28,383 nucleotides of DNA, from UHGV virus genome UHGV-0136520; one strand, given 5' to 3'. The position numbers and the translations under genes are program-made. Under the pieces are notes generated by a model. That model searched no databases. It was not told the DNA's origin and saw only the letters and a list, made by a program, of their open reading frames with translations. This document shows positions 8,793-28,383 of the stretch, piece after piece (position 1 is the stretch's first letter; the number at the start of each line of letters is the position of its first letter). This DNA comes from a virus.

Positions 8793-10108
8793 CGTTAAAC
8801 AAATATTGCCAGGCGTTGGCGGCACTACGCAGCCAACCAGCCCACGAATTGAGAGAAGTTGGCGATCAGTGGCGGACACCGGATCTGCTTTTCTGGGGTA
8901 TTAACGCGCTATTTGGGCCATTAGTTCTGGACTTGTTTGCTGACGACGACAACGCGAAGTGCCCGGCATGGTACACCGCCGAAGATAATGCGCTGACGCA
9001 GGACTGGTCTGAACGTCTTACAGAACTGGGTGGCGCCGGTTATGGCAACCCACCGTATAGCCGTTCGCAGTATCACGAGAAACAGGCGATCACCGGCATG
9101 ACGCACATCATGAACTACGCAGCAGCCCAGCGCGAGAAGGGCGGTCGCTATGTATTCCTGATAAAAGCCGCGCCGAGTGAAAAGTGGTGGCCCGAAGATG
9201 CCGATCACATTGTATTCATTCGCGGGCGCATTGGGTTCGATCTGCCTGTGTGGTTTGTACCTGCTGACGAAAAACAGAAGCCCACCAGCGCGTTTTTTGC
9301 CGGTGCTATAGCTGTATTCGATAAGTCATGGCGTGGTGAGCGGTTCAGCTATATCAACCGTACAGAACTGGAGGCAAAAGGGCGGGCGTTTATGACTTTG
9401 GCGCAATTTGCTGCCAGCAAGTCTCAACCTGCAACTGCCACACCATCTGTAGCTGACAAGCCAGAAGCAGAGTTGCCACTTACCCAGAAAGATATTTTTG
9501 ATATCAGCGGTGTCGAGGCGTGGGCATGCGTTAGAGCTGCGTTCGGCGATAAAGAAGAATACACATTCAGTGAATCGAAGTTTGGGCATACCTGGGCGGC
9601 GGATTCTGTCGAAGCACCGGAATTCACTCAGGTATCACCATTAACGATCGACAAAGCGAAGCTGCTTATTCGTGAGAGTATTTTGTTCGGTGTGGATGAG
9701 TGGCTGTTGTCGATTGAATTCGATGACGCTGCTGCGCGCCTGGATATGTCGGAACGTATTCGGACTGTTGCCCTTGAAGCATCTGGTGAATATGGCATGA
9801 ACAGTACTGATTTCATTGCAGCTATGGGAAGCCTGGATGTTTCCAGTTGGTCCAATATTCGCCAGATCCGCATGCACATCCGTGAGAAAGCTAAACCAGT
9901 ATCGGATCCGCTTCCCGAGTCCCGTATCTGGCCGCTGGAGGTTGGAATTGTATTCGACCAGGTAGACGGCGCTGACATGCTGGATGAATCACAGCAGAAC
10001 AAGCTGAAAGCCAACATCAATCAACTCTGGCTGGAGCGGACTGCCACCAGCGAAATCATTACTGCTGCTTCTGAACTTGTTCGCAATATGCGGGGAGAGG
10101 CTGCGTGA
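8789..10108 (+). CDS. Phage DNA N6-adenine methyltransferase (Dam-type, NPPY motif) with an uncharacterised C-terminal extension of about 240 aa, 439 aa total
   Basis: N-terminal WRTPDLLF and catalytic GNPPYS motifs are typical of the phage Dam family. The C-terminal half has no motif I recognise. ATG overlaps the upstream stop (ATGA). Confidence 0.7.
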   Translation: MTLNKYCQALAALRSQPAHELREVGDQWRTPDLLFWGINALFGPLVLDLFADDDNAKCPAWYTAEDNALTQDWSERLTELGGAGYGNPPYSRSQYHEKQAITGMTHIMNYAAAQREKGGRYVFLIKAAPSEKWWPEDADHIVFIRGRIGFDLPVWFVPADEKQKPTSAFFAGAIAVFDKSWRGERFSYINRTELEAKGRAFMTLAQFAASKSQPATATPSVADKPEAELPLTQKDIFDISGVEAWACVRAAFGDKEEYTFSESKFGHTWAADSVEAPEFTQVSPLTIDKAKLLIRESILFGVDEWLLSIEFDDAAARLDMSERIRTVALEASGEYGMNSTDFIAAMGSLDVSSWSNIRQIRMHIREKAKPVSDPLPESRIWPLEVGIVFDQVDGADMLDESQQNKLKANINQLWLERTATSEIITAASELVRNMRGEAA

Positions 10109-16462: not shown

Positions 16463-16474
16463 GGGCGGCGACCT
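16463..16474. other. cos: cosN (12-nt cohesive-end site, lambda type)
   Basis: Sequence GGGCGGCGACCT in the context ACG-GGGCGGCGACCT-CGC matches the lambda cohesive end as I recall it, and sits about 180 bp upstream of the Nu1 start as in lambda. Confidence 0.7.
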
Positions 16475-16640
16475 CGCAGATTCTCGCTATTTATGAAAAT
16501 TTTCTGGCATTTGCCGTTTCCGTTCTTCTTCTCGCTAATTCATTGTTTTAACTGCAAACACCCCTGAAAAGAAAGGAAACGATAAGCCTTAAAAACGGCT
16601 AAATAACTAGAGGGCGTTTCCTTTCTCTGTTTTCGTGCAT
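16475..16640. promoter_or_regulatory. cosB (terminase small-subunit binding elements R3, R2, R1)
   Basis: Lambda-like R elements: CGTTTCCGTTCTTCTTC (16514-16530), GAAAGGAAACGA (16571-16582), CGTTTCCTTTCTC (16615-16627). Confidence 0.6.
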
Positions 16641-16650
16641 GGAGTGAGCT

Positions 16651-17196
16651 ATGGAGGTCAACAAAAAGCGTCTTTCTGAAATATTTGGGGTCAGCGTGCG
16701 AACCATTCAGAACTGGCAGGATCAGGGAATGCCTGTAGCACGTGGTGGCGGAAAAGGTAATGAGGTCCTCTATGAATCTTCCGCGGCTATTGAATGGTAT
16801 TCCGCACGCGACGCGGCGATTGAGAATGAGAAATTACGCAAGGAGGTGGAAGACCTTCGTCTTGCATCGGAATCCGACCTCCAGCCAGGTACGATTGACT
16901 ATGAGCGTCACCGCCTTACCCGGGCGCAGGCAGACGCCCAGGAACTAAAAAATGCAAAAGATTCCGCTGAGGTGGTGGAAACCGCATTCTGCACGTTCGT
17001 GCTGTCGCGGATGGCCGGAGAAGTAGCCAGCATTCTTGATGGAGTTCCTCTGTCGGTTCAGCGGCGCTTCCCGGAGCTGGAAAACCGACATATTGATTTC
17101 CTCAAGAAGGACATCATTAAGGCCATGAACAAAGCAGCTGCGCTGGATGAAATAATACCGGGGTTGCTGAGTGAATATATCGAACAGTCAGGTTAA
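16651..17196 (+). CDS. nu1: Terminase small subunit (lambda Nu1-like), 181 aa
   Basis: N-terminus MEVNKKRLSEIFGVSVRTIQNWQDQGMPV and the rest closely match my recollection of lambda gpNu1. Same length as lambda Nu1. Confidence 0.9.
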   Translation: MEVNKKRLSEIFGVSVRTIQNWQDQGMPVARGGGKGNEVLYESSAAIEWYSARDAAIENEKLRKEVEDLRLASESDLQPGTIDYERHRLTRAQADAQELKNAKDSAEVVETAFCTFVLSRMAGEVASILDGVPLSVQRRFPELENRHIDFLKKDIIKAMNKAAALDEIIPGLLSEYIEQSG

Positions 17197-19093
17197 GGGG
17201 CTGCAGCACTCTGCGCGCGCAGGGCTACTTTCGCTGTACCGGCCTGAGCCGCAAACGGCGGTTGAATGGGCAGACGATAATTACTATCTCCCCAAAGAGT
17301 CGGCCTATCAGGAAGGGCGCTGGGAAACGTTGCCGTTTCAACGCGCGATCATGAATGCGATGGGTAACGACTACATTCGTGAAGTTAACGTTGTTAAGTC
17401 TGCCCGTGTTGGCTATTCAAAAATGTTGCTGGGTGTTTATGCGTATTTTATTCAGCACAAGCAGCGAAATTCCCTTATCTGGCTGCCCACTGATGGTGAC
17501 GCCGAAAACTTCATGAAGTCGCATGTTGAGCCGACGATTCGCGATATTCCGTCACTTCTGGCGCTGGCCCCCTGGTATGGCAAAAAGCACCGGGACAATA
17601 CGCTCAGCATGAAACGCTTCTCCAACGGTCGCGGGTTCTGGTGTCTGGGTGGTAAGGCGGCGAAAAACTATCGTGAAAAGTCAGTGGATGTTGCCGGCTA
17701 TGACGAACTCGCTGCTTTTGATGAGGATATTGAGAAAGAGGGTTCCCCGACGTTTCTCGGTGATAAACGTATTGAGGGCTCTGTCTGGCCCAAATCTATT
17801 CGCGGATCAACGCCAAAAACAAAGGGAACCTGCCAGATTGAGCGTGCTGCCAGCGAGTCCGGGCATTTCATGCGTTTTCATGTTGCCTGTCCGCACTGTG
17901 GTGAAGAGCAGTACCTTAAGTTCGGCGACAAAGAGACCCCGTTCGGGTTCAAATGGACACCGGGCGAACCTTCCAGCGTCTTTTACCTGTGCGAACATAA
18001 TGCCTGCGTCATTAAGCAGCAGGAGCTGGATTTCACTGAAGCTCGTTACATCTGCGACACCACCGGGATCTGGACGCGCGACGGTTTATCCTGGTTTTCA
18101 TCAACAGGCACCGAAATCGACCCGCCAGACAGCGTGACGTTTCACATCTGGACGGCATACAGCCCGTTTACCACCTGGGTACAGATCGTTAAAGACTGGC
18201 TAAAAACGAAAGGGGATACCGGAAAGCGTAAAACCTTCGTTAACACCACTCTGGGCGAAACATGGGAGCCTAAAATTGGTGAACGGCCTGACGCGGAGAT
18301 CATGGCCGAACGTAAAGAGTTTTTCGGGGCATCCGTACCGGATCGTGTTGCTTATCTGACAGCCGGGATTGACTCCCAGCTGGATCGATATGAAATGCGC
18401 GTCTGGGGATGGGGGCCCGGTGAGGAAAGCTGGCTGATTGACCGGCAGATCATTATGGGCCGTCATGATGATGAAGCTACTCTCGTCAGGGTGGACGAGG
18501 CGATTAACAAAACCTACCCCCGAAAGAATGGCGTGGAAATGTCGGTATCCCGTATCTGCTGGGATATCGGCGGTATTGACCCCACAATTGTCTACAATCG
18601 CTCAAAAAAGCATGGTCTGTTTCGCGTGATCCCGATTAAAGGGGCTTCCGTTTACGGTAAGCCTGTGGCGAATATGCCGCGTAAACGCAACAAGAACGGC
18701 GTTTATCTGACGGAAGTGGGTACAGATACCGCAAAGGAGCAGATTTATAACCGCTTCACACTTCAGCCGGAAGGGAGTGAACCTCTTGCCGGTGCCGTGC
18801 ATTTTCCCAATAACCCAGAAATTTACGATCTGGCTGAGGCACAGCAGCTTACTGCTGAGGAGCAGGTTGAAAAATGGGTGGACGGGCGTAAGAAAATCGT
18901 CTGGGACAGCAAAAAGCGACGAAATGAGGCGCTGGACTGCTTCGTGTACGCGCTGGCTGCCCTGCGGATCAGTATTTCGCGATGGCAACTGAATCTTGAT
19001 TCACTGCTCGCAAGCCTGCTGGAGGAAGAGGGGAACCGGACCAATAACAAAACCCTGGCTGATTATGCCAGGGCATTATCTGGAGATGAATAA
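17171..19093 (+). CDS. A: Terminase large subunit (lambda gpA-like), 640 aa
   Basis: Overlaps the nu1 3' end as in lambda. Length and synteny match lambda gpA (641 aa). Confidence 0.9.
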
Positions 19094-19299
19094 TGGCGAC
19101 ACAGACTGATCTGGATGCCGCCCGCGCTGCGTTGCACGATCTCATGATGGGAAAGCGGGTGGCAACGGTGCAAAAAGACGGCCGGCGGGTTGAGTTTACC
19201 GCGACCTCCGTCAGTGACCTGAAAAAATACATTGCCGAACTTGAGTCACAGGTTGGCACCACTCCACGACGCCGGGGACCGGCAGGATTTTACGCATGA
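19093..19299 (+). CDS. W: Head-tail joining protein (lambda gpW-like), 68 aa
   Basis: Sequence ([43 protein letters not shown]) closely matches lambda gpW as I recall it. Confidence 0.85.
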
Positions 19300-20888
19300 A
19301 AACACCTGCTTTGTTAGGACCGGACGGTAAAACCGCTCTACGGGATTATGCCGGATATCATGGCGGTGCTGGTGGCTTTGGCGGTCAGCTCCGCGCCTGG
19401 AATCCACCGAGTGAAAGCGCAGATGCTGCGTTATTGCCTAATTTTTCCCGTGGTAACGCGCGCGCTGACGATCTGGTCCGCAATAACGGCTATGCGGCAA
19501 ACGCGGTACAGCTCCATCAGGACCACATTGTCGGGTCGTTTTTCCGGCTCAGTTATCGGCCCAGCTGGCGTTTTCTTGGCATTGGGGAGGAAGAGGCCCG
19601 GGCGTTCTCCCGTGAAGTTGAGGCGGCCTGGAAAGAATTTGCGGAGGATGATTGCTGCTGCATTGATGCGGAACGTAAGCGTACATTCACCATGATGATC
19701 CGCGAGGGTGTTTCCATGCATGCGTTTAACGGTGAGTTATGTGCACAGGCCACCTGGGACAGTGATTCCACGCGTCTTTTCCGCACACAGTTCAAAATGG
19801 TGAGCCCAAAACGCATCAGCAACCCCAATAACGCCGGAGACACGCGAAACTGTCGGGCAGGTGTCAGAACAAATGACAGTGGCGCCGCGCTGGGATATTA
19901 CGTCAGCGAGGATGGCTATCCGGGGTGGATGGCGCAGAAGTGGACCTATATCCCGCGTGAACTGCCCGGCGGGCGGCCTTCCTTTATCCACGTGTTTGAA
20001 CCCCTGGAAGATGGGCAGACACGCGGTGCCAACGTGTTTTACAGCGTCATGGAGCAAATGAAAATGCTCGATACGCTGCAGAATACGCAGCTCCAGAGCG
20101 CGATTGTCAAGGCGATGTATGCCGCCACGATTGAAAGTGAGCTGGATACGCAAACCGCGATGGACTTTATTCTCGGCTCAGACAGTAAAGAGCAGCAAAG
20201 CAAGATGACTGGCTGGCTGGGGGAGATGGCCTCGTACTATACCGCGGCGCCGGTTCGTCTCGGGGGCGCGAAGGTGCCGCATCTGATGCCGGGCGACTCC
20301 CTGAATCTTCAGTCAGCGCAGGACACTGACAACGGCTATTCGACGTTTGAACAATCTCTGTTGCGCTACATTGCTGCAGGGCTGGGGGTGTCGTATGAGC
20401 AACTCTCTCGCAACTATTCGCAGATGAGTTATTCCACCGCCCGCGCCAGTGCTAACGAGTCCTGGGCGTACTTTATGGGGCGTCGCAAATTTGTTGCCTC
20501 CCGCCAGGCCTGTCAGATGTTTTTATGCTGGCTGGAAGAGGCCATTGTCCGCCGCGTGGTGACATTGCCGTCTAAAGCCCGGTTCAGTTTTCAGGAGGCG
20601 AGAAGCGCCTGGGGAAATGCTGACTGGATCGGCTCCGGGCGAATGGCCATTGACGGACTGAAGGAGGTGCAGGAGGCAGTCATGCTCATTGAGGCGGGGC
20701 TGAGCACCTATGAGAAGGAATGCGCCAAACGCGGGGAAGACTATCAGGAAATCTTTGCCCAGCAGGTTCGTGAAACGATGGAGCGTCGTGCTGCGGGCCT
20801 TAAACCGCCAGCGTGGGCGGCTTCGGCCTTTGAGTCTGGACTGAAAAAATCGAATGAGGAGGGGACAGATGACGCCAGAGCTGCGTAA
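19296..20888 (+). CDS. B: Portal protein (lambda gpB-like), 530 aa
   Basis: Long stretches match lambda gpB as I recall it (for example [25 protein letters not shown] and the [12 protein letters not shown] region). Confidence 0.9.
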
Positions 20889-22206
20889 TCTCCCGCACAT
20901 TGCCAGTATGGCTTTCAATGAGCCGCTTTTACTTGAACCCGCCTATGCGCGGGTTTTCTTTTGTGCTCTCGCTGGTCAGTTAGGTATCACCCGTCTGACC
21001 GATACCGTGTCGGGCGTGACGCTTGGCGCAGAGCAGATGGCTGAACCGCTGGCACTCTTTGGTGATGATGAGGACATGGGACCAAAGCCGGCGCGAAGCT
21101 ACCAGGTCACTGATGGTATCGCGGTGCTGCCTGTTTCCGGGACGCTGGTCAGTAAAACCCGCTCACTTCAGCCGTATTCGGGGATGACGGGGTACAACGG
21201 CATCATCGCCCGCCTCCAGCAGGCAATCAGCGATCCGGGTGTAGACGGCATTCTTCTTGATATGGATACGCCAGGTGGAATGGTGGCGGGTGCCTTTGAC
21301 TGCGCGGACATCATCGCCCGTATGCGGGATACCAAACCCATCTGGGCGTTAGCCAACGATATGAACTGCAGCGCTGGCCAGCTGATTGCCAGTGCGGCAT
21401 CACGTCGGCTTGTGACGCAGACGGCCAGAACGGGATCTATCGGGGTCATGATGGCCCACAGCAATTACGGCGCCGCCCTTAAAACCAGCGGCGTTGAGGT
21501 CACGTTGATTTACAGCGGCGATCACAAGGTGGACGGGAACCCCTACGAGAAATTACCCAAAGAGGTACGCGCAGATTTTCAGGCGCGTATTGACGCTACC
21601 CGGCAGATGTTCGCTGAAAAGGTGGCAGGTTATACCGGCATGTCGGTACAGGCCGTTCTTGATACTGAAGCCGCTGTGTTTTCAGGCCAGGAATCAGTAG
21701 ACAACGGCCTGGCGGAGCAGCTGGTCAACAACATGGATGCGCTGAACGTTATGCGCGATGCAATTAACAAACGAACGATGATTTCCCGAGGAGGAAGCAT
21801 GAAAGGTACTACTGCATCCGCAGATACCACTCAACCAGCAGCATCTGCTGACCAGACCGTGACCACCGTTGACGTGCCTGCTGCGGTCGTTACTGACCCT
21901 GCAGCGGGTGCAACTGTTGATATCAGCAGCCAGCTGGCAGCGGCGGTCGCAGCCGAAAACGGTCGCATTATGGGGATCCTGAACTGTGAAGAGGCGAAAG
22001 GGCGTGAATCACAGGCGCGCGCGCTGGCGGAAACGCCAGGGATGACGGTGGAAAGTGCCCAGCGCATCCTTGCCGCGGCTCCTCAGAGTGCCCAGGCGCG
22101 TACGGATACCGCGCTGGATCGTCTGATGGAAACCGCACCCGGCACCGTAACGGCAGGTAGCGCTTCTGCCAAAGCGGGTGACGATTTGTTAAATACGCCT
22201 GTTTAA
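20869..22206 (+). CDS. C: Prohead protease/scaffold (lambda gpC-like, S49/ClpP-type; Nu3-like scaffold expected nested in frame), 445 aa
   Basis: Start [31 protein letters not shown] matches lambda gpC as I recall it. SD GAGGAGG upstream of ATG 20869. Confidence 0.85.
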   Translation: MTPELRNLPHIASMAFNEPLLLEPAYARVFFCALAGQLGITRLTDTVSGVTLGAEQMAEPLALFGDDEDMGPKPARSYQVTDGIAVLPVSGTLVSKTRSLQPYSGMTGYNGIIARLQQAISDPGVDGILLDMDTPGGMVAGAFDCADIIARMRDTKPIWALANDMNCSAGQLIASAASRRLVTQTARTGSIGVMMAHSNYGAALKTSGVEVTLIYSGDHKVDGNPYEKLPKEVRADFQARIDATRQMFAEKVAGYTGMSVQAVLDTEAAVFSGQESVDNGLAEQLVNNMDALNVMRDAINKRTMISRGGSMKGTTASADTTQPAASADQTVTTVDVPAAVVTDPAAGATVDISSQLAAAVAAENGRIMGILNCEEAKGRESQARALAETPGMTVESAQRILAAAPQSAQARTDTALDRLMETAPGTVTAGSASAKAGDDLLNTPV

Positions 22207-22215
22207 GAGGTCAAC

Positions 22216-22548
22216 ATGTCTAACACTGAACAATTTACGCACAATCAGCCCCTCGGGAACAGTGATCCGGCGCATACCGGTTTTGCACCTGGTGAACTGA
22301 CGAAAGCAGTACCGGCGATGACGCCCCTGATGCTGGATGCCACTTCCGGCAAGCTGACCGTCTGGGATGGCCAGCATGCTGGGTCTGCCTGTGGCGTTCT
22401 GGCGGTGTCTGCCGACCAGAGCAGCACTGAGCTGGCATTCTATAAGTCCGGCTCTTTCCGTATTGAAGATGTGCTCTGGCCGGATGCGGTGACGGATGAA
22501 CACATCAAACGCAACGCATTCGCAGGTACAGCCATCAGTATCGTCTGA
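22216..22548 (+). CDS. D: Head decoration protein (lambda gpD-like), 110 aa
   Basis: Matches lambda gpD as I recall it (NSDPAHT...[10 protein letters not shown]...[13 protein letters not shown]...[10 protein letters not shown]). Same length. Confidence 0.9.
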
Positions 22549-22580
22549 CATCCGACTTAATACTAACCATCATCCACAGA

Positions 22581-22602
22581 AGCCGCCATCGCGGCTTTTT
22601 TT
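22581..22602 (+). terminator. Terminator-like hairpin with U-run between D and E (possible attenuator)
   Basis: AGCCGC, loop CATC, GCGGCT followed by TTTTTT, sitting in the short D-E spacer. Confidence 0.4.
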
Positions 22603-22615
22603 ACAGGAAACATCT

Positions 22616-23641
22616 ATGTCAACTTACACAACGGCCCAACTGCTGGCGGTCAATGAGAAGAAATTCAAGTTCGATCCGCTTTTCCTGCGTATCTTCTTCC
22701 GTGAAAGCTATCCCTTCAGCACCGAGAAGGTGTATCTGTCGCAAATCCCGGGCATGGTCAACATGGCGCTGTATGTCTCGCCTGTTATTTCCGGCAAGGT
22801 TATCCGCTCCCGCGGCGGCGCAACGTCAGAGTTTACGCCGGGTTACGTCAAACCCAAGCACGAGGTAAATCCACAGATGACGCTGCGTCGCCTGCCGGAT
22901 GAAGATCCGCAAAATCTGGCTGACCCGGCCTACCGCCGCCGTCGCATTATCCTGCAGAACATGAAGGATGAGGAGCTGGCGATTGCCCAGGTGGAAGAGA
23001 AACAGGCGGTGGCTGCTGTCCTCAACGGTAAATACACCATGACCGGCGAAGCGTTTGAACCGGTTGAGGTGGATATGGGACGCAGTGCCGGAAACAACAT
23101 CATCCAGGCAGGCGCTGCGGCATGGAGCACCCGCGACAAAGAAACCTATGACCCCACTGACGATATTGAAACCTATGCGCTGAACGCCAGCGGCGTGGTC
23201 AATATTATCGTCTTTGATCCGAAGGGCTGGGCGTTGTTCCGTTCATTCAAAGCGGTAAAAGAGAAGCTTGACACCCGTCGCGGTTCTAACTCTGAACTGG
23301 AAACGGCGCTGAAAGATCTGGGTGAAGCGGTCTCCTATAAGGGAATGTATGGCGATGTGGCCATTGTCGTTTACTCCGGGCAATACATTGAAGACGACAC
23401 CAAAAAGAACTACCTGCCGGATTTGAGCATGGTGCTGGGTAATACCCAGGCGCGCGGCTTGCGCACCTACGGCTGCATTCAGGATGTGGATGCCCAGCGT
23501 GAAGGCATTAATGCTTCCACGCGTTATCCGAAAAACTGGGTACAGACAGGCGATCCGGCGCGTGAGTTCACCATGATCCAGTCTGCACCACTGATGCTGC
23601 TGGCTGACCCGGATGCGTTCGTGTCTGTCAAACTCGCCTGA
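22616..23641 (+). CDS. E: Major capsid protein (lambda gpE-like), 341 aa
   Basis: MSTYTTAQLLAVNEKKFKFDPLFLRIFFRESYPF and most of the remainder match lambda gpE as I recall it. Same length (341 aa). ATG 22616 chosen over the track's upstream start. Confidence 0.9.
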   Translation: MSTYTTAQLLAVNEKKFKFDPLFLRIFFRESYPFSTEKVYLSQIPGMVNMALYVSPVISGKVIRSRGGATSEFTPGYVKPKHEVNPQMTLRRLPDEDPQNLADPAYRRRRIILQNMKDEELAIAQVEEKQAVAAVLNGKYTMTGEAFEPVEVDMGRSAGNNIIQAGAAAWSTRDKETYDPTDDIETYALNASGVVNIIVFDPKGWALFRSFKAVKEKLDTRRGSNSELETALKDLGEAVSYKGMYGDVAIVVYSGQYIEDDTKKNYLPDLSMVLGNTQARGLRTYGCIQDVDAQREGINASTRYPKNWVQTGDPAREFTMIQSAPLMLLADPDAFVSVKLA

Positions 23642-23686
23642 TGTCCATTCTGTGGCCCTGCGGGGCCCTGCTCCGGAGTTGTTCTT

Positions 23687-24091
23687 ATGACTGAAAAAGA
23701 AAAGTTGATTGCGCGGCTTAATGAACTTGGCGCGCAGCTTGATCGGGAAGTGAATACCAGTGGCACCATTCAGGAGCTCTCTATGCGCATTGCAGAGCTG
23801 GAGGAAGAACTGAATGACGGCACGGATACCGATAGTGTTGAAAATGGTGGCGTGAGTGATGGTAGTGCATCCACCGGCGCCGTAGAACCCGTGCCGCCAG
23901 TGGATACTGTGTTAAGCGGTAGAACAGATGACGCGCTGATGGCCGTCGAAGCGCTGGCCACGCTGCACATTGAGGCGCTGCACGCGACCCGCGATGAACG
24001 GGTATCTATTGTCGAGGCGGGGACCGTGATCCGCGTGAAAGAAGCGGATGCGGACAGTCTGGTTGCACTCGGACTGGTCCGCGAGCACTAA
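23687..24091 (+). CDS. FI: DNA packaging/head completion protein (lambda gpFI-like), 134 aa
   Basis: Position and similarity to lambda FI (LIARL..LG.QL ... LHATRDE motif region). Confidence 0.8.
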   Translation: MTEKEKLIARLNELGAQLDREVNTSGTIQELSMRIAELEEELNDGTDTDSVENGGVSDGSASTGAVEPVPPVDTVLSGRTDDALMAVEALATLHIEALHATRDERVSIVEAGTVIRVKEADADSLVALGLVREH

Positions 24092-24102
24092 CAGGGGGCT
24101 GT

Positions 24103-24456
24103 GTGGCTGATTTCGATAACCTTTTTGATGCTGCAATAACACAGGCCGATGACACTATTCGGCAGGTTATGGGGACTTCTGCAACGGTAACGTCCGGCGC
24201 GATTTCTGGCGTCACGTTGAGTGGTGTTTTCGATGATCCGGAAAATATCGGTTACGCCACACCCGGCATCCGTGTCGAGGGGACCAGCCCGTCGCTGTTT
24301 GTGAAATCAGCAATGATTGGGCAACTGGCGCGGCTGGACACGCTGGATATTAACGGAAAGCCTTTCTGGGTTGATCGTATTGGTCCTGATGACTGTGGAT
24401 CCTGCCATGTCTGGCTCGGTACGGGTTCTCCCCCCGCAGCGACCCGGCGCCGGTAA
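24103..24456 (+). CDS. FII: Head-tail connector (lambda gpFII-like), 117 aa
   Basis: MADFDNLFDAAI...GVFDDPENI...FWVDRIGPDD matches lambda FII as I recall it. GTG start. Confidence 0.85.
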   Translation: MADFDNLFDAAITQADDTIRQVMGTSATVTSGAISGVTLSGVFDDPENIGYATPGIRVEGTSPSLFVKSAMIGQLARLDTLDINGKPFWVDRIGPDDCGSCHVWLGTGSPPAATRRR

Positions 24457-24465
24457 GGGGAAACT

Positions 24466-25020
24466 ATGTCTTTAAAAGGGCTTGAACAGGCTATAGCAAA
24501 CCTGAACAGCATCAGCAATACGGCGGTTCCGCGGGCCTCGGCGCAGGCTGTTAACCGTGTCGCCACCCGGGCAGTCAGCCGAAGCGTTGCCGTTGTCTCG
24601 AAAGATACTCGGGTGCCACGCAAGCTGGTAAAACAACGCGCGAGGATAAAACGCGCCACGGCGAAAAATCCGATGGCAATGATTCGCGTGAACCGGGGCA
24701 ACCTGCCCGCGATAAAGCTGGGTACCGCCAGCGTACGGTTATCCCGCAGAAAACGGGATAAAAAAGGGGCCAATAGTGTGTTGCGTATTGGCCCTTTTCG
24801 TTTCCCCGGTGCCTTTATTCAACAACTGGAAAATGGCCGCTGGCATGTGATGCGAAGGACATCCAGACCCCGCTATCCGATCGAAGTGGTCAGCATTCCA
24901 CTGGCAGCGCCACTGACGACCGCATTTAAAGATGAGCTGCCGAAGCTAATGGAATCGGATATGCCTAAAGAACTTCGGGCATCCCTTAAAAACCAACTCA
25001 GGCTGATTCTGAAACGATGA
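24466..25020 (+). CDS. Z: Minor tail protein (lambda gpZ-like), 184 aa
   Basis: Synteny and similarity to lambda Z. Confidence 0.85.
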   Translation: MSLKGLEQAIANLNSISNTAVPRASAQAVNRVATRAVSRSVAVVSKDTRVPRKLVKQRARIKRATAKNPMAMIRVNRGNLPAIKLGTASVRLSRRKRDKKGANSVLRIGPFRFPGAFIQQLENGRWHVMRRTSRPRYPIEVVSIPLAAPLTTAFKDELPKLMESDMPKELRASLKNQLRLILKR

Positions 25021-25415
25021 AACACACTGATATTAGAAAGGCGATTATTGATTCGCTGGAGAGCCATATTGGTAAAGACGCACTCTATTTTGACGGACGT
25101 CCAGCGGTACTGGAGGAGGGGGATTTTCCGGCGGTCGCTGTCTTCCTGACGGATGCCGGGTATACCGGCGAAGAACTGGATGCTGATATCTGGCAGGCCA
25201 CGCTGCATATCGAAATCTTTTTACCAGCGCAGGTACCAGATTCCGAGCTCGATGACTGGATGGAGTCACGTATTTATCCGGTGCTTGGCAATGTGCCAGG
25301 ACTTTCCCTGCTGATCAATAACATGGTGCAGCAAGGGTATGACTACCAGCGCGATGATGATCTTGGGCTGTGGAGTTCGGCTGATCTGAAATATTCCATT
25401 ACCTACGAAATGTGA
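25017..25415 (+). CDS. U: Tail terminator protein (lambda gpU-like), 132 aa
   Basis: FDGRPAVLEEGDFPAVAVFLT...LPAQVPDSELDDWMESRIYPV matches lambda U as I recall it. Confidence 0.85.
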   Translation: MKHTDIRKAIIDSLESHIGKDALYFDGRPAVLEEGDFPAVAVFLTDAGYTGEELDADIWQATLHIEIFLPAQVPDSELDDWMESRIYPVLGNVPGLSLLINNMVQQGYDYQRDDDLGLWSSADLKYSITYEM

Positions 25416-25422
25416 GGACGTA

Positions 25423-26160
25423 ATGACTACACCAAACCCACTGGCGCCGGTAAAGGGTGCCACCACCACGCTCTGGATTTATTCCGGATCGGGTAACCCG
25501 TTCGCCAACCCGGTATCGGATGTTGACTGGACGCGGCTGGCAAAGATTAAAGACCTGCAGCCCGGTGAACTGACTGCCGAATCAAACGACGATACCTACC
25601 TGGACGACGATGATGCCGACTGGACTGCCACCTCGCAGGGGCAGAAATCGGCGGGTGAGGCCAGTTTTACGCTGGCCTGGAAACCTGCCGAGAGCGGGCA
25701 GCAGGATCTGGTTCGCTGGTTTGATGACGGTACCGTGCTGGCGTACAAAATTAAATACCCGAATGGCGCCATCGATGTGTTCCGTGGCTGGGTAAGCAGC
25801 CTGGGTAAAACGGTGACGGCAAAAGACACCATTACTCGTTCTGTCAAAATCAGCAATAACGGCAAGCCAGGCCTTGCTGAAGACAGCGCTGCTGCAGCGA
25901 TTGCCGTAACTGGCGTCAGCCTGGATAAATCGACCGCCACCGTTGCAGTTGCTGCCACCACCACGCTGAATGTCACCGTGACGCCAGCCAGCGCGAGCGA
26001 TCCATCTTTCCGGGCCACCACCACGGATGCAGGTAAAGCCACGGTGGCTGTCGCCGGTACGGTGCTGACGGTCACCGGCATTGCCGCCGGAACCGCCGAC
26101 ATTATCGTGATGACCAATGACGGGTTGTTTGTCGCGACCTGTAAAGTCACCGTTTCCTGA
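25423..26160 (+). CDS. V: Major tail tube protein (lambda gpV-like) with C-terminal Ig-like domain, 245 aa
   Basis: Synteny and similarity to lambda V. C-terminal region is Thr/Ala/Val-rich, consistent with an Ig-like decoration domain. Confidence 0.9.
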   Translation: MTTPNPLAPVKGATTTLWIYSGSGNPFANPVSDVDWTRLAKIKDLQPGELTAESNDDTYLDDDDADWTATSQGQKSAGEASFTLAWKPAESGQQDLVRWFDDGTVLAYKIKYPNGAIDVFRGWVSSLGKTVTAKDTITRSVKISNNGKPGLAEDSAAAAIAVTGVSLDKSTATVAVAATTTLNVTVTPASASDPSFRATTTDAGKATVAVAGTVLTVTGIAAGTADIIVMTNDGLFVATCKVTVS

Positions 26161-26196
26161 TCTTCGGGGCTGTGGCCCCGCTTTCCGGAGTAACCC

Positions 26197-26604
26197 ATGT
26201 TTTTAAAAAGTGAACCGTTCGAACGTAACGGTAATACAGTCACGCTCTACGAGCTGTCGGCACTGCAGCGTATTGAGCATCTTGAACACCTGAAGGCGCT
26301 GGAAAGTATCACCGATGCCGACATGCAGGCGGCGATGGATATGACGATTAAATCCGGCGCACTGCTGGTGGCCATGTCGTTATGGCATGGGCATCCCCTG
26401 AAAGGGACGCACAAAACGCCGAAAGAAGACGTAGAGCAGATCCAGAATGAAGTGCTGATGACCTGGCCGCTGGAGATTGTTTCCGCAGCAGAGTACAGCG
26501 TGAAGCTGCTGTCAGGCATGGTGCCGCTGCAGGAAGTAAATGTTCCGGAGGATGTCGCTGTGACTGAGCCGGTCAGTCTGGAAAAGTCCTCGCCAGTGAG
26601 CTGA
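26197..26604 (+). CDS. G: Tail assembly chaperone (lambda gpG-like), 135 aa
   Basis: MFLKSEPFERNGNTVTLYELSALQRIEHL matches the lambda G N-terminus as I recall it. Confidence 0.85.
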   Translation: MFLKSEPFERNGNTVTLYELSALQRIEHLEHLKALESITDADMQAAMDMTIKSGALLVAMSLWHGHPLKGTHKTPKEDVEQIQNEVLMTWPLEIVSAAEYSVKLLSGMVPLQEVNVPEDVAVTEPVSLEKSSPVS

Positions 26605-26933
26605 CATTCGTCCTGAAACTGGCGCGTGAATTTCGTCGCCCGGACTGGCGCGCCATGCTTGCTGGTATGTCGTCAACGGAATACGCCGACTGGCGAACGT
26701 TCTACCAGGACAATTTTTTTAATGATGTGCAACTGGATGCGCATTTTTCCTCGCTGATGCATATCGTCATTACCGCGCTTGACCCCAAAACCACATCAAC
26801 CCCTGCCAGCTTCAGCCTGCTTTCACCTTCTGCGGAGGATATTGCCGACGATGAACCCGGTGATGCTGTGCTGATGGCAAAGGCCGAGGGCATTTCAGGA
26901 GGCGTTCGCTATGGCCCAGACGGCAGTGGGTGA
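26197..26933 (+). CDS. T: Tail assembly chaperone G-T fusion made by -1 programmed ribosomal frameshift (slip near 26580-26586, T frame open 26568-26933)
   Basis: The -1 frame is open from 26568 and continues as the T-like ORF to stop 26931-26933. The only slippery-like heptamer in the overlap is G GAA AAG (26580-26586), at the position of lambda G GGA AAG six codons before the G stop. Confidence 0.65.
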
Positions 26934-28383
26934 CCTGGTCGTTAACCTTGATGTTAACTCGTCAAAGTTCAACGAACAGATGGAGTACGTAAAACGGCAG
27001 TTTAAGCAGACGGGTGACGCAGCGAATGACTCTGCGCTGAAGGTGCAGCAGTCATTTACCCGCCAGGAGAGCGCGGCGAAGAAGGCCGGTATTTCTGTAG
27101 GCCAGTACAACGCCGCGATGCGTATGCTGCCTGCGCAGTTTACGGATATCGCCACCCAGCTGGCCGGTGGTCAAAGCCCATGGCTCATTTTGCTGCAGCA
27201 GGGTGGTCAGGTTAAAGACTCCTTCGGCGGTATCATGCCGACCTTCAGGGCGCTGCTGGGCACCATATCGCCGGTGATGGTGGGGGTTGGCGCGCTGGCA
27301 GCCGCCACCGGTGCGGTGGTTTACGCCTGGTATCAGGGCTCGTCCACGCTGTCTGATTTCAACAAAACGCTGGTCCTGTCCGGAAACACTGCCGGGCTGA
27401 CCTCAAACCGCATGCTGGTTCTGGCGAAATCCGGCGAGCAGGCGGGACTCACGTTTAACCAGACCAGCAACGCGCTGACGGAGCTGGTTAACGCCGGAGT
27501 GCGTGCCGGTGCCCGGTTCGATGATATGAGTCAGGCGGTAGCGAAATTCACCGATGCGTCGGGTGTGCCGGTCGATAAGGTGGCGGCGGCATTCGGCAAA
27601 CTGACGAACGATCCGACCTCTGGTCTGATTGCCATGGCGCAGCAGTTCCATAACGTCACAGCGGAACAGATTGCTTATGTGGCACAGCTGCAACGTGCCG
27701 GGGATGAAGCCGGGGCGCTGCAGGCGGCTAATGATGCGGCGACGAATGGTTTTCGTGAGCAGACAAAGAGCCTGCGCGACAATATGGGGTCGATTGAGTC
27801 TGCTGCCGACAGCCTGAAGCGTGCCTTTAAATCGATGTGGGATGCGGCGCTCGATATCGGGCGGCCTGACACCACGCAGGAGATGGTTGCCAAAGCTGAA
27901 GCGGCCTTTAAGCGGGCGGATGAAATCTGGAATCTGCGTAAAGGCGATCGTTACGTCAATGATGATGCGCGCGCCAGCTACTGGAACGATCGGGAGTCTG
28001 CACGCCTTGCACTGGAAATGGCGCAGCAGCAGGCCAGTGTGGCAAAGGCAACGGAGGATAACGCCGCCCGCGAGGCGGTGATTGAATCTGACCGCCAGAA
28101 GTATGCCGCTCAGGCGCAGTCGAATTATGCAAAGACCCAGACTGCGCTGGAGAAGTACACGGCCCGTCAGAATGAACTGAACAAGGCACTGAAGGACGGG
28201 AGGATCCTTCAGGCTGACTACAACATCAATCTGGAAGCTGCGAAAAAAGAATACGACGACTCGCTGAAGAAACCCAAAGCCCCTTCAGCGGTGAAAACAC
28301 CTGCAGGCGTAAAAAGTGTCGATACTGCCAGCGCGCAGACGCTGGAGCTGGAGGCGCAGTTACGCACTCTGCAGGAGCATAAG
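26911..28383 (+). CDS. H: Tail tape-measure protein (lambda gpH-like), N-terminal 491 codons, truncated by window end
   Basis: ATG 26911 overlaps the end of T. Open to the last base of the window. Segments GQSPWLILLQQGGQVKDSFGG, LSDFNKTLVLSGN and LEKYTARQNELNKALKDG match lambda H as I recall it. Confidence 0.85.
   Translation, partial: MAQTAVGDLVVNLDVNSSKFNEQMEYVKRQFKQTGDAANDSALKVQQSFTRQESAAKKAGISVGQYNAAMRMLPAQFTDIATQLAGGQSPWLILLQQGGQVKDSFGGIMPTFRALLGTISPVMVGVGALAAATGAVVYAWYQGSSTLSDFNKTLVLSGNTAGLTSNRMLVLAKSGEQAGLTFNQTSNALTELVNAGVRAGARFDDMSQAVAKFTDASGVPVDKVAAAFGKLTNDPTSGLIAMAQQFHNVTAEQIAYVAQLQRAGDEAGALQAANDAATNGFREQTKSLRDNMGSIESAADSLKRAFKSMWDAALDIGRPDTTQEMVAKAEAAFKRADEIWNLRKGDRYVNDDARASYWNDRESARLALEMAQQQASVAKATEDNAAREAVIESDRQKYAAQAQSNYAKTQTALEKYTARQNELNKALKDGRILQADYNINLEAAKKEYDDSLKKPKAPSAVKTPAGVKSVDTASAQTLELEAQLRTLQEHK

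Follow-up and report, generated by a model that had tools for sequence, protein, structure and literature searches.

A G GAA AAG heptamer as the probable -1 frameshift site between tail chaperone genes G and T of virus genome UHGV-0136520

The overlap between tail genes G and T in virus genome UHGV-0136520 very probably holds a programmed -1 frameshift site of a lambda/N15-type chaperone pair, carried by a temperate siphovirus prophage of Citrobacter/Kluyvera-like enterobacteria, and a two-tRNA slip on the heptamer G GAA AAG is its likeliest mechanism. A first-pass annotation, made from the letters of the sequence, had proposed a G-T programmed frameshift at this heptamer, and the proposal is supported at the sequence level by homologues, frame layout, motif conservation and the annotation of phage N15. 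We infer from these data that the fusion is produced, that two tRNAs take part, that efficiency lies in the low-percent range and that a downstream hairpin has a role. The site carries little biological weight in itself: it is one ordinary case of a conserved frameshift in phage tail chaperones, and GGAAAAG has been annotated in N15 for more than two decades. The additions made here are a survey in which GGAAAAG proves to be one of the main forms of the signal, evidence from synonymous sites for P-site re-pairing, and the observation that annotation pipelines split T off from its fusion.

Tail module

All positions refer to the window, the whole 28,383-nt stretch of DNA that was analysed; the features considered are listed in Table 1. 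Pfam matches placed homologues of V, G, T and H in lambda order, with the G-T pair between the major tail and tape measure genes. The Phage_TAC_2 match spans residues 1-117 of G, whose ATG follows a GGAG Shine-Dalgarno sequence at 6 nt, and an identical G protein is present in Citrobacter freundii records under the name 'phage tail assembly chaperone G'. The tail tube protein has a C-terminal Big_2 domain (Pfam, E = 1.7e-12). The tape measure ORF begins 23 nt ahead of the T stop, with an AGGAGG Shine-Dalgarno sequence 8 nt 5' of its start, and its 3' end lies beyond the window edge.

Table 1. Features of the tail module and the predicted frameshift signal, in window positions
Feature	Position	Strand	Length	Remarks
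Major tail tube protein, lambda V-like, 5' of G	25423..26160	+		Phage_TTP_12, E = 1.1e-65
Gene G, tail assembly chaperone, zero-frame product	26197..26604	+	135 aa	Pfam Phage_TAC_2, E = 1e-43
G/T overlap	26568..26604	+	37 nt	Sole stretch allowing a -1 join of G to T
Slippery heptamer G GAA AAG (predicted)	26580..26586	+		Zero frame ctG GAA AAG; -1 frame GGA AAA G
T segment, -1 frame, post-slip	26586..26933	+		Pfam Phage_tail_T, E = 1.5e-12
Candidate stimulatory hairpin	26591..26624	+		CGCCAGU (26591-97) paired with ACUGGCG (26618-24)
Tape measure protein, lambda H-like	26911..28383	+		Pfam TMP_2, E = 5.6e-72

The window is a mosaic. Its terminase and head genes (16463-23816) share 81-86% DNA identity with phi80 and mEp237, and the tail chaperone region (within 23687-28383) shares only about 70% with any named phage. 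The left 16 kb holds early and regulatory genes, encoded on both strands. Scans of the window returned no Rfam families and no tRNA genes. Between V and G, positions 26166-26179 form a GC-rich stem-loop (GGGGC-TGTG-GCCCC) followed by GCTTTCC. This stem-loop failed the terminator scan because its T run is short. The records of N15 and HK225 annotate a stem-loop or putative rho-independent terminator at the equivalent site, and the element may attenuate transcription of G-T-H relative to V.

The overlap of G and T and its heptamer

A TGA at 26565-67 closes the frame of T, which then runs open from 26568 up to the stop at 26931-33; the G stop occupies 26602-04. The claim that the T-like frame opens only at 26568 is therefore correct. 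When all in-phase heptamers of the overlap were scanned, GGAAAAG was the single one with a YYYZ part, in agreement with the earlier reading of it as the sole slippery-like sequence there. Downstream of the heptamer, TCC TCG CCA GTG AGC TGA supplies five sense codons and then the G stop. The distance from the end of the heptamer to the end of the stop is 18 nt, and it is the same in lambda, N15, mEp237 and HK225, as had been asserted for lambda. After a slip, GTC at 26586 would be the first codon of the T segment.

Relatives narrow the interval further. In two of them (loci L049 and L054) the -1 frame opens merely 3 nt 5' of the heptamer, and in four others (L019, L020, L042 and L044) the G stop lies two codons past AAG. 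Together these layouts confine the shift to about 13 nt containing the heptamer.

The bare string GGAAAAG occurs eight times in the window against 4.15 expected, an excess that is not significant. Chance does not account for the heptamer's phase and position, nor for how little it varies at synonymous sites over 70 distinct homologous junctions. As far as they can be tested, all features of the site place it in the lambda-type G/GT frameshift family, with a fusion as the predicted product.

The heptamer departs from the canonical X_XXY_YYZ form, which has three identical X and so leaves the P-site tRNA with two non-wobble Watson-Crick pairs after a shift, in that its X_XX is G_GA. Judged by its sequence, it would be a near-canonical site of the G_GA type that behaves like a heptamer. 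G_GA is an accepted intermediate between the hexamer and the canonical heptamer, and X_XX need not be three identical bases (PMC5009743). The same X_XX occurs in the heptamers of RNA viruses (G_GAU_UUY and others, in insect-specific flaviviruses, dianthoviruses, umbraviruses and mesoniviruses; PMC5009743), but those sites work on eukaryotic ribosomes with other A-site codons and strong pseudoknot or stem-loop stimulators, and the resemblance is one of principle only. Annotation rules tied to canonical X_XXY_YYZ will overlook the common G_GAA_AAG.

Counterparts in N15-type phages and lambda

Megablast found no near-identical sequence in the phage collection or in complete E. coli genomes. N15-type tail genes share only about 70% identity with the window, and distant blastn and protein-pattern scans were therefore needed. 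Distant blastn identified N15, mEp237 and HK225, all plaque-forming phages, as the closest named phages at about 70% identity. At the homologous site all three read GCG GAA AAG; the window reads CTG GAA AAG and lambda GCG GGA AAG, and thus the P-site codon is GAA here and GGA in lambda, as first noted.

The GenBank record of N15 (AF064539) carries a misc_feature at 10027..10033 described as "slippery sequence for -1 translational frameshift". These bases read GGAAAAG, and gene 15 is described in the same record as "downstream half of translational frameshift product". GGAAAAG is thus the standard N15-type form of the signal and was already known. Novelty of the heptamer is not supported, given its annotation in N15 and its presence in mEp237, HK225 and 121 of 231 related loci. 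Our literature search for frameshifting on GGAAAAG found none, the matches being unrelated human and plant genetics.

The likeness to N15 genes 14/15, and to the corresponding genes of mEp237 and HK225, extends to an identical heptamer, phase and distance to the G stop, the V-G-T-H order, and a near-identical sequence in the 3' direction (GGAAAAG YCC TCG CCA GTG AGC TGA). The downstream hairpin arms CGCCAGU/ACUGGCG are common to both. The window differs from N15 in overall identity (about 70% nucleotide, 62% GT protein), in the codon 5' of the heptamer (CTG, Leu, in place of GCG, Ala) and in the length of G (135 aa, 140 aa in N15). N15-type phages also have an in-frame ATG 33 nt after the heptamer start, which the window lacks.

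The lambda G/GT frameshift on G GGA AAG was reportedly described by Levin, Hendrix and Casjens in 1993 and by Xu, Hendrix and Duda in 2004, 2013 and 2014. The window shares with lambda homologous G and T genes (55% GT identity), a site separated from the G stop by five sense codons, the lysine slip on A AAG in the A site, and a role between the major tail and tape measure genes. It differs in the P-site codon, GAA (Glu) against GGA (Gly), and in the place of the G·U pair that would form after the slip: in lambda this pair falls at the wobble position (tRNA-Gly on GGG), whereas at the window site it falls at the middle position. Nor does lambda form a stable hairpin downstream of its site: the values are -6.7 kcal/mol (z = +1.5) in lambda and -16 kcal/mol (z = -3.2) in the window.

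Related loci

The survey drew on 42 loci in species-representative genomes and 80 in IMG/VR. Heptamers were read in 231 related loci: 121 had GGAAAAG, 106 had GGGAAAG and four had another sequence. A second IMG/VR scan used a pattern with heptamer positions 1-3 left free, and the first 120 stretches among the matches listed gave GGGAAAG in 84, GGAAAAG in 34, and AGAAAAG and AGGAAAG in one each. Counted as distinct junction sequences, the order was reversed, with 29 for GGAAAAG and 13 for GGGAAAG. Both heptamers occur often, with GGAAAAG showing the greater diversity.

IMGVR_UViG_3300003109_000018 matched the window at 100% over GT, and the nearest species-representative genomes were those of Kluyvera (97%). 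Prophages with GGAAAAG were found in Kluyvera, Enterobacter, Citrobacter, Pseudocitrobacter, Superficieibacter, Entomohabitans, Pluralibacter, Atlantibacter, Kosakonia, Rahnella and Klebsiella. The heptamer is retained where G identity to the query falls below 50% and where the G stop lies two codons past AAG. In species-representative genomes, GGGAAAG was confined to Escherichia, apart from many copies of lambda DNA in unrelated assemblies.

These lambda-identical G-T junctions (L022-L034, L037-L039 and L043) lie on short, low-coverage contigs of species-representative assemblies. The taxa include Neobacillus, Oceanobacillus, Kitasatospora, Pseudomonas, Shewanella and Leeuwenhoekiella, as well as Paenibacillus, Enterococcus, Pseudoxanthomonas and Psychrobacter. 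They are almost certainly lambda control or spike-in contamination, and this contamination inflates the counts of the lambda-type heptamer. In three further loci (L046, L072 and L073) lambda-like G genes are disrupted.

The rare heptamers were AGAAAAG (L088), GGCAAAG (L113) and AGGAAAG (one locus among L127 onward), and all keep A AAG. L088 and L113 have the full 7-bp downstream helix. In these poorly re-pairing sites single-tRNA slippage may be under test in nature; alternatively, the sites may belong to decaying prophages.

Synonymous-site conservation and the slip

Conservation was counted over 70 distinct homologous junction sequences; these are phylogenetically related, so that independent events are fewer than the counts imply. 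Heptamer positions 2 and 4-7 were invariant (70/70), including the synonymous positions 4 (A) and 7 (G). Position 1 was G in 69 of the 70, and position 3 was A in 64, G in five and C in one. The G-frame third positions in the 21 nt 5' of the heptamer were all variable, with a mean minor-base fraction of 0.53, and a Glu codon 12 nt upstream was GAG in 36 and GAA in 29. The codon that ends at position 1 was GCG (Ala), CTG (Leu), CCG (Pro) or GTG (Val), and the G was kept after all four. These are all preferred enterobacterial codons, which accounts for part of the G bias at position 1. Among all 231 loci, the base 5' of NNA_AAG was other than G in three (AGAAAAG twice, AGGAAAG once).

In the mechanism that we propose, the majority of ribosomes would read G through to its stop, and a minority would move back a single base at G GAA AAG and go on in the -1 frame. 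In the A site, tRNA-Lys (anticodon UUU) would exchange AAG for AAA, which it matches better. In the P site, tRNA-Glu (anticodon UUC) would leave GAA for GGA; its pairs at the first and third positions would be retained, and a G·U would be tolerated between them. On GGA, tRNA-Glu (3'-CUU-5') forms G-C, G·U and A-U, with one non-Watson-Crick pair, the central one. Both the need for such a mismatch in tandem re-pairing and the retention of the A AAG lysine slip had been pointed out in the first-pass annotation, and both agree with our reading. The A_AA.G tetramer is the most shift-prone in E. coli, where the sole tRNA-Lys (UUU) pairs better with AAA, and G_GG.A_AA.G ranks among the best heptamers (PMC4066793).

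The earlier suggestion of a single-tRNA slip is the main rival to this mechanism. In such a slip tRNA-Lys alone would move on A AAG, while occupying the A site or else the P site with the A site vacant, and GAA would matter solely through its third base, A. The site would then resemble the NNA_AAG hexanucleotides of B. subtilis cdd (A_CGA_AAG) and IS1222 (G_CGA_AAG), where tRNA-Lys (UUU) shifts from AAG to AAA on the A_AA.G tetramer (PMC5009743, PMC4066793). NNA_AAG hexamers are in natural use as -1 sites, and there as in the window the preceding codon ends in A (PMC5009743). A_AA.G alone gave up to 5.6% frameshifting in E. coli with a strong stimulator, but tetramers without a stimulator barely exceeded background (PMC4066793). 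AAAG is invariant in all homologues, and the P-site tRNA re-pairs poorly in the rare AGAAAAG and GGCAAAG. Position 1, however, is irrelevant to a slip of this kind, yet it is held as G while neighbouring third positions are free; the window's base 5' of the P-site codon is thus conserved, unlike that of the hexanucleotides, and permits a near-cognate P-site re-pairing of the heptamer kind.

Because position 1 stays G after four different codons, the sequence comparison favours a tandem slip with near-cognate P-site re-pairing, and we consider a pure single-tRNA slip unlikely. The rare AGAAAAG, AGGAAAG and GGCAAAG relatives suggest that P-site re-pairing may not be strictly required. Conservation of position 1 is evidence from natural variation for selection on re-pairing in the P site by way of a central G·U.

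Transcriptional slippage was rejected, as the A run is only four bases long. Established cases of it need much longer homopolymers (PMC5009743).

Production of T as a GT fusion

The predicted GT fusion has 245 aa, reads ...VTEPVSLEK up to the junction and VLASELTFVLKLAREF... after it, and aligns across the junction with the GT proteins of lambda, N15 and HK225. Its T domain would recruit the major tail protein to the tape measure. Lambda requires G and GT at a ratio of about 30:1 (PMC5009743). By analogy with lambda, and in view of the viability of N15-type phages with this heptamer, GT would be made at a few percent of G and be needed for tail assembly. The exact 245-aa fusion was not found in a collection of 15 billion proteins, and a search for protein evidence of a GT fusion in this phage or in N15-type phages found none.

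Public annotation treats T differently. A free-standing 'phage tail assembly protein T' of 92 aa or 106 aa, begun at an internal ATG, is annotated on at least 1000 contigs, and pipelines give the window's T as a 92-aa ORF from ATG 26655, the first start in the T frame. In this phage group, annotation systematically omits the programmed frameshift.

These annotations would be right if there were no frameshift, T being initiated independently at ATG 26655 and GGAAAAG being a coincidental coding of Glu-Lys. The entire Pfam T domain does lie 3' of this ATG. Between the G stop and ATG 26655, however, there are 16 T-frame codons that vary as protein-coding sequence does, mostly at third positions (0.20, compared with 0.07 at first and 0.03 at second positions), and the residues of this stretch, ELxFxLKLAREFxRPDWRA, are conserved with lambda GT. 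The Shine-Dalgarno sequence of ATG 26655 is weak (-4.1 kcal/mol; G has -6.1 and H -10.3), and the promoter scan found no promoter-like site near T. Although the GGAAAAG string is not rare in the window, its synonymous positions in the heptamer are fixed, which speaks against coincidental coding. Furthermore, the homologous T of lambda is made only as GT, which is essential (Levin et al. 1993, cited in PMC5009743). Independent initiation of T is on this evidence highly improbable, and production of T as a GT fusion is the reading that we retain.

Downstream structure and other stimulators

Folding of 26560-26625 gave a candidate stimulatory hairpin with a 7-bp helix, 34 nt in all, separated from the heptamer by a 4-nt spacer; a stimulatory hairpin or pseudoknot would be expected to begin some 4-10 nt past its motif. 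The hairpin alone had -13.8 kcal/mol and the 44 nt downstream of the heptamer -16 kcal/mol (z = -3.2). The same 44-nt fold gave -12.1 kcal/mol in N15, -23 in Atlantibacter and -6.7 (z = +1.5) in lambda. Over 38 distinct sequences the pairing was present in 92.5% of cells, and both arms are coding. The loop-closing pair was UA in 22, CG in six and UG in four, and was unpaired in six; it is the only pair that covaries, and covariation is slight. Folding showed the hairpin to be absent from lambda and from the distant GGAAAAG relatives Rahnella and Klebsiella spallanzanii. The candidate falls within the in silico criteria for stimulators given in PMC4066793, and the 7-bp helix 3' of the heptamer may stimulate the shift and so raise its efficiency.

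Other structures were considered. A local hairpin CUCG/UGAG (26589-26600) was rejected, as folding gave the longer CGCCAGU/ACUGGCG helix instead. An upstream Shine-Dalgarno-like stimulator was also discarded: the nearest such sequence, GGAGGA (26547-52), ends 27 nt before the heptamer, and the range for such elements is 6-17 nt (PMC4066793). The longer downstream fold of 26587-26686 was not unusual (z = -0.58).

The mean MFE of the 44 nt downstream was -13.6 kcal/mol for GGAAAAG (35 distinct junctions) and -8.7 kcal/mol for GGGAAAG (eight), a difference confounded by phylogeny. The still weaker A GAA AAG and G GCA AAG have, like G GAA AAG, a hairpin of 7 bp or longer 4 nt downstream, which sites of the lambda type, G GGA AAG, do not have. 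Slip-site strength and downstream structure could have co-evolved to keep the G:GT ratio constant, an idea that we hold tentatively and think rather doubtful. If true, these loci would form a natural compensation series that tunes -1 frameshift efficiency, and GGAAAAG plus a hairpin, rather than lambda's site, would be the typical form of the signal.

In the Atlantibacter prophages (L035 and L036) the helix is lengthened to 11 bp and abuts the heptamer (-23 kcal/mol, z = -4.1). Arginine in the 3' arm is encoded by AGG rather than CGT, which accounts for part of the extension. Of all the observations, this one hints most strongly at selection acting on the hairpin in some lineages.
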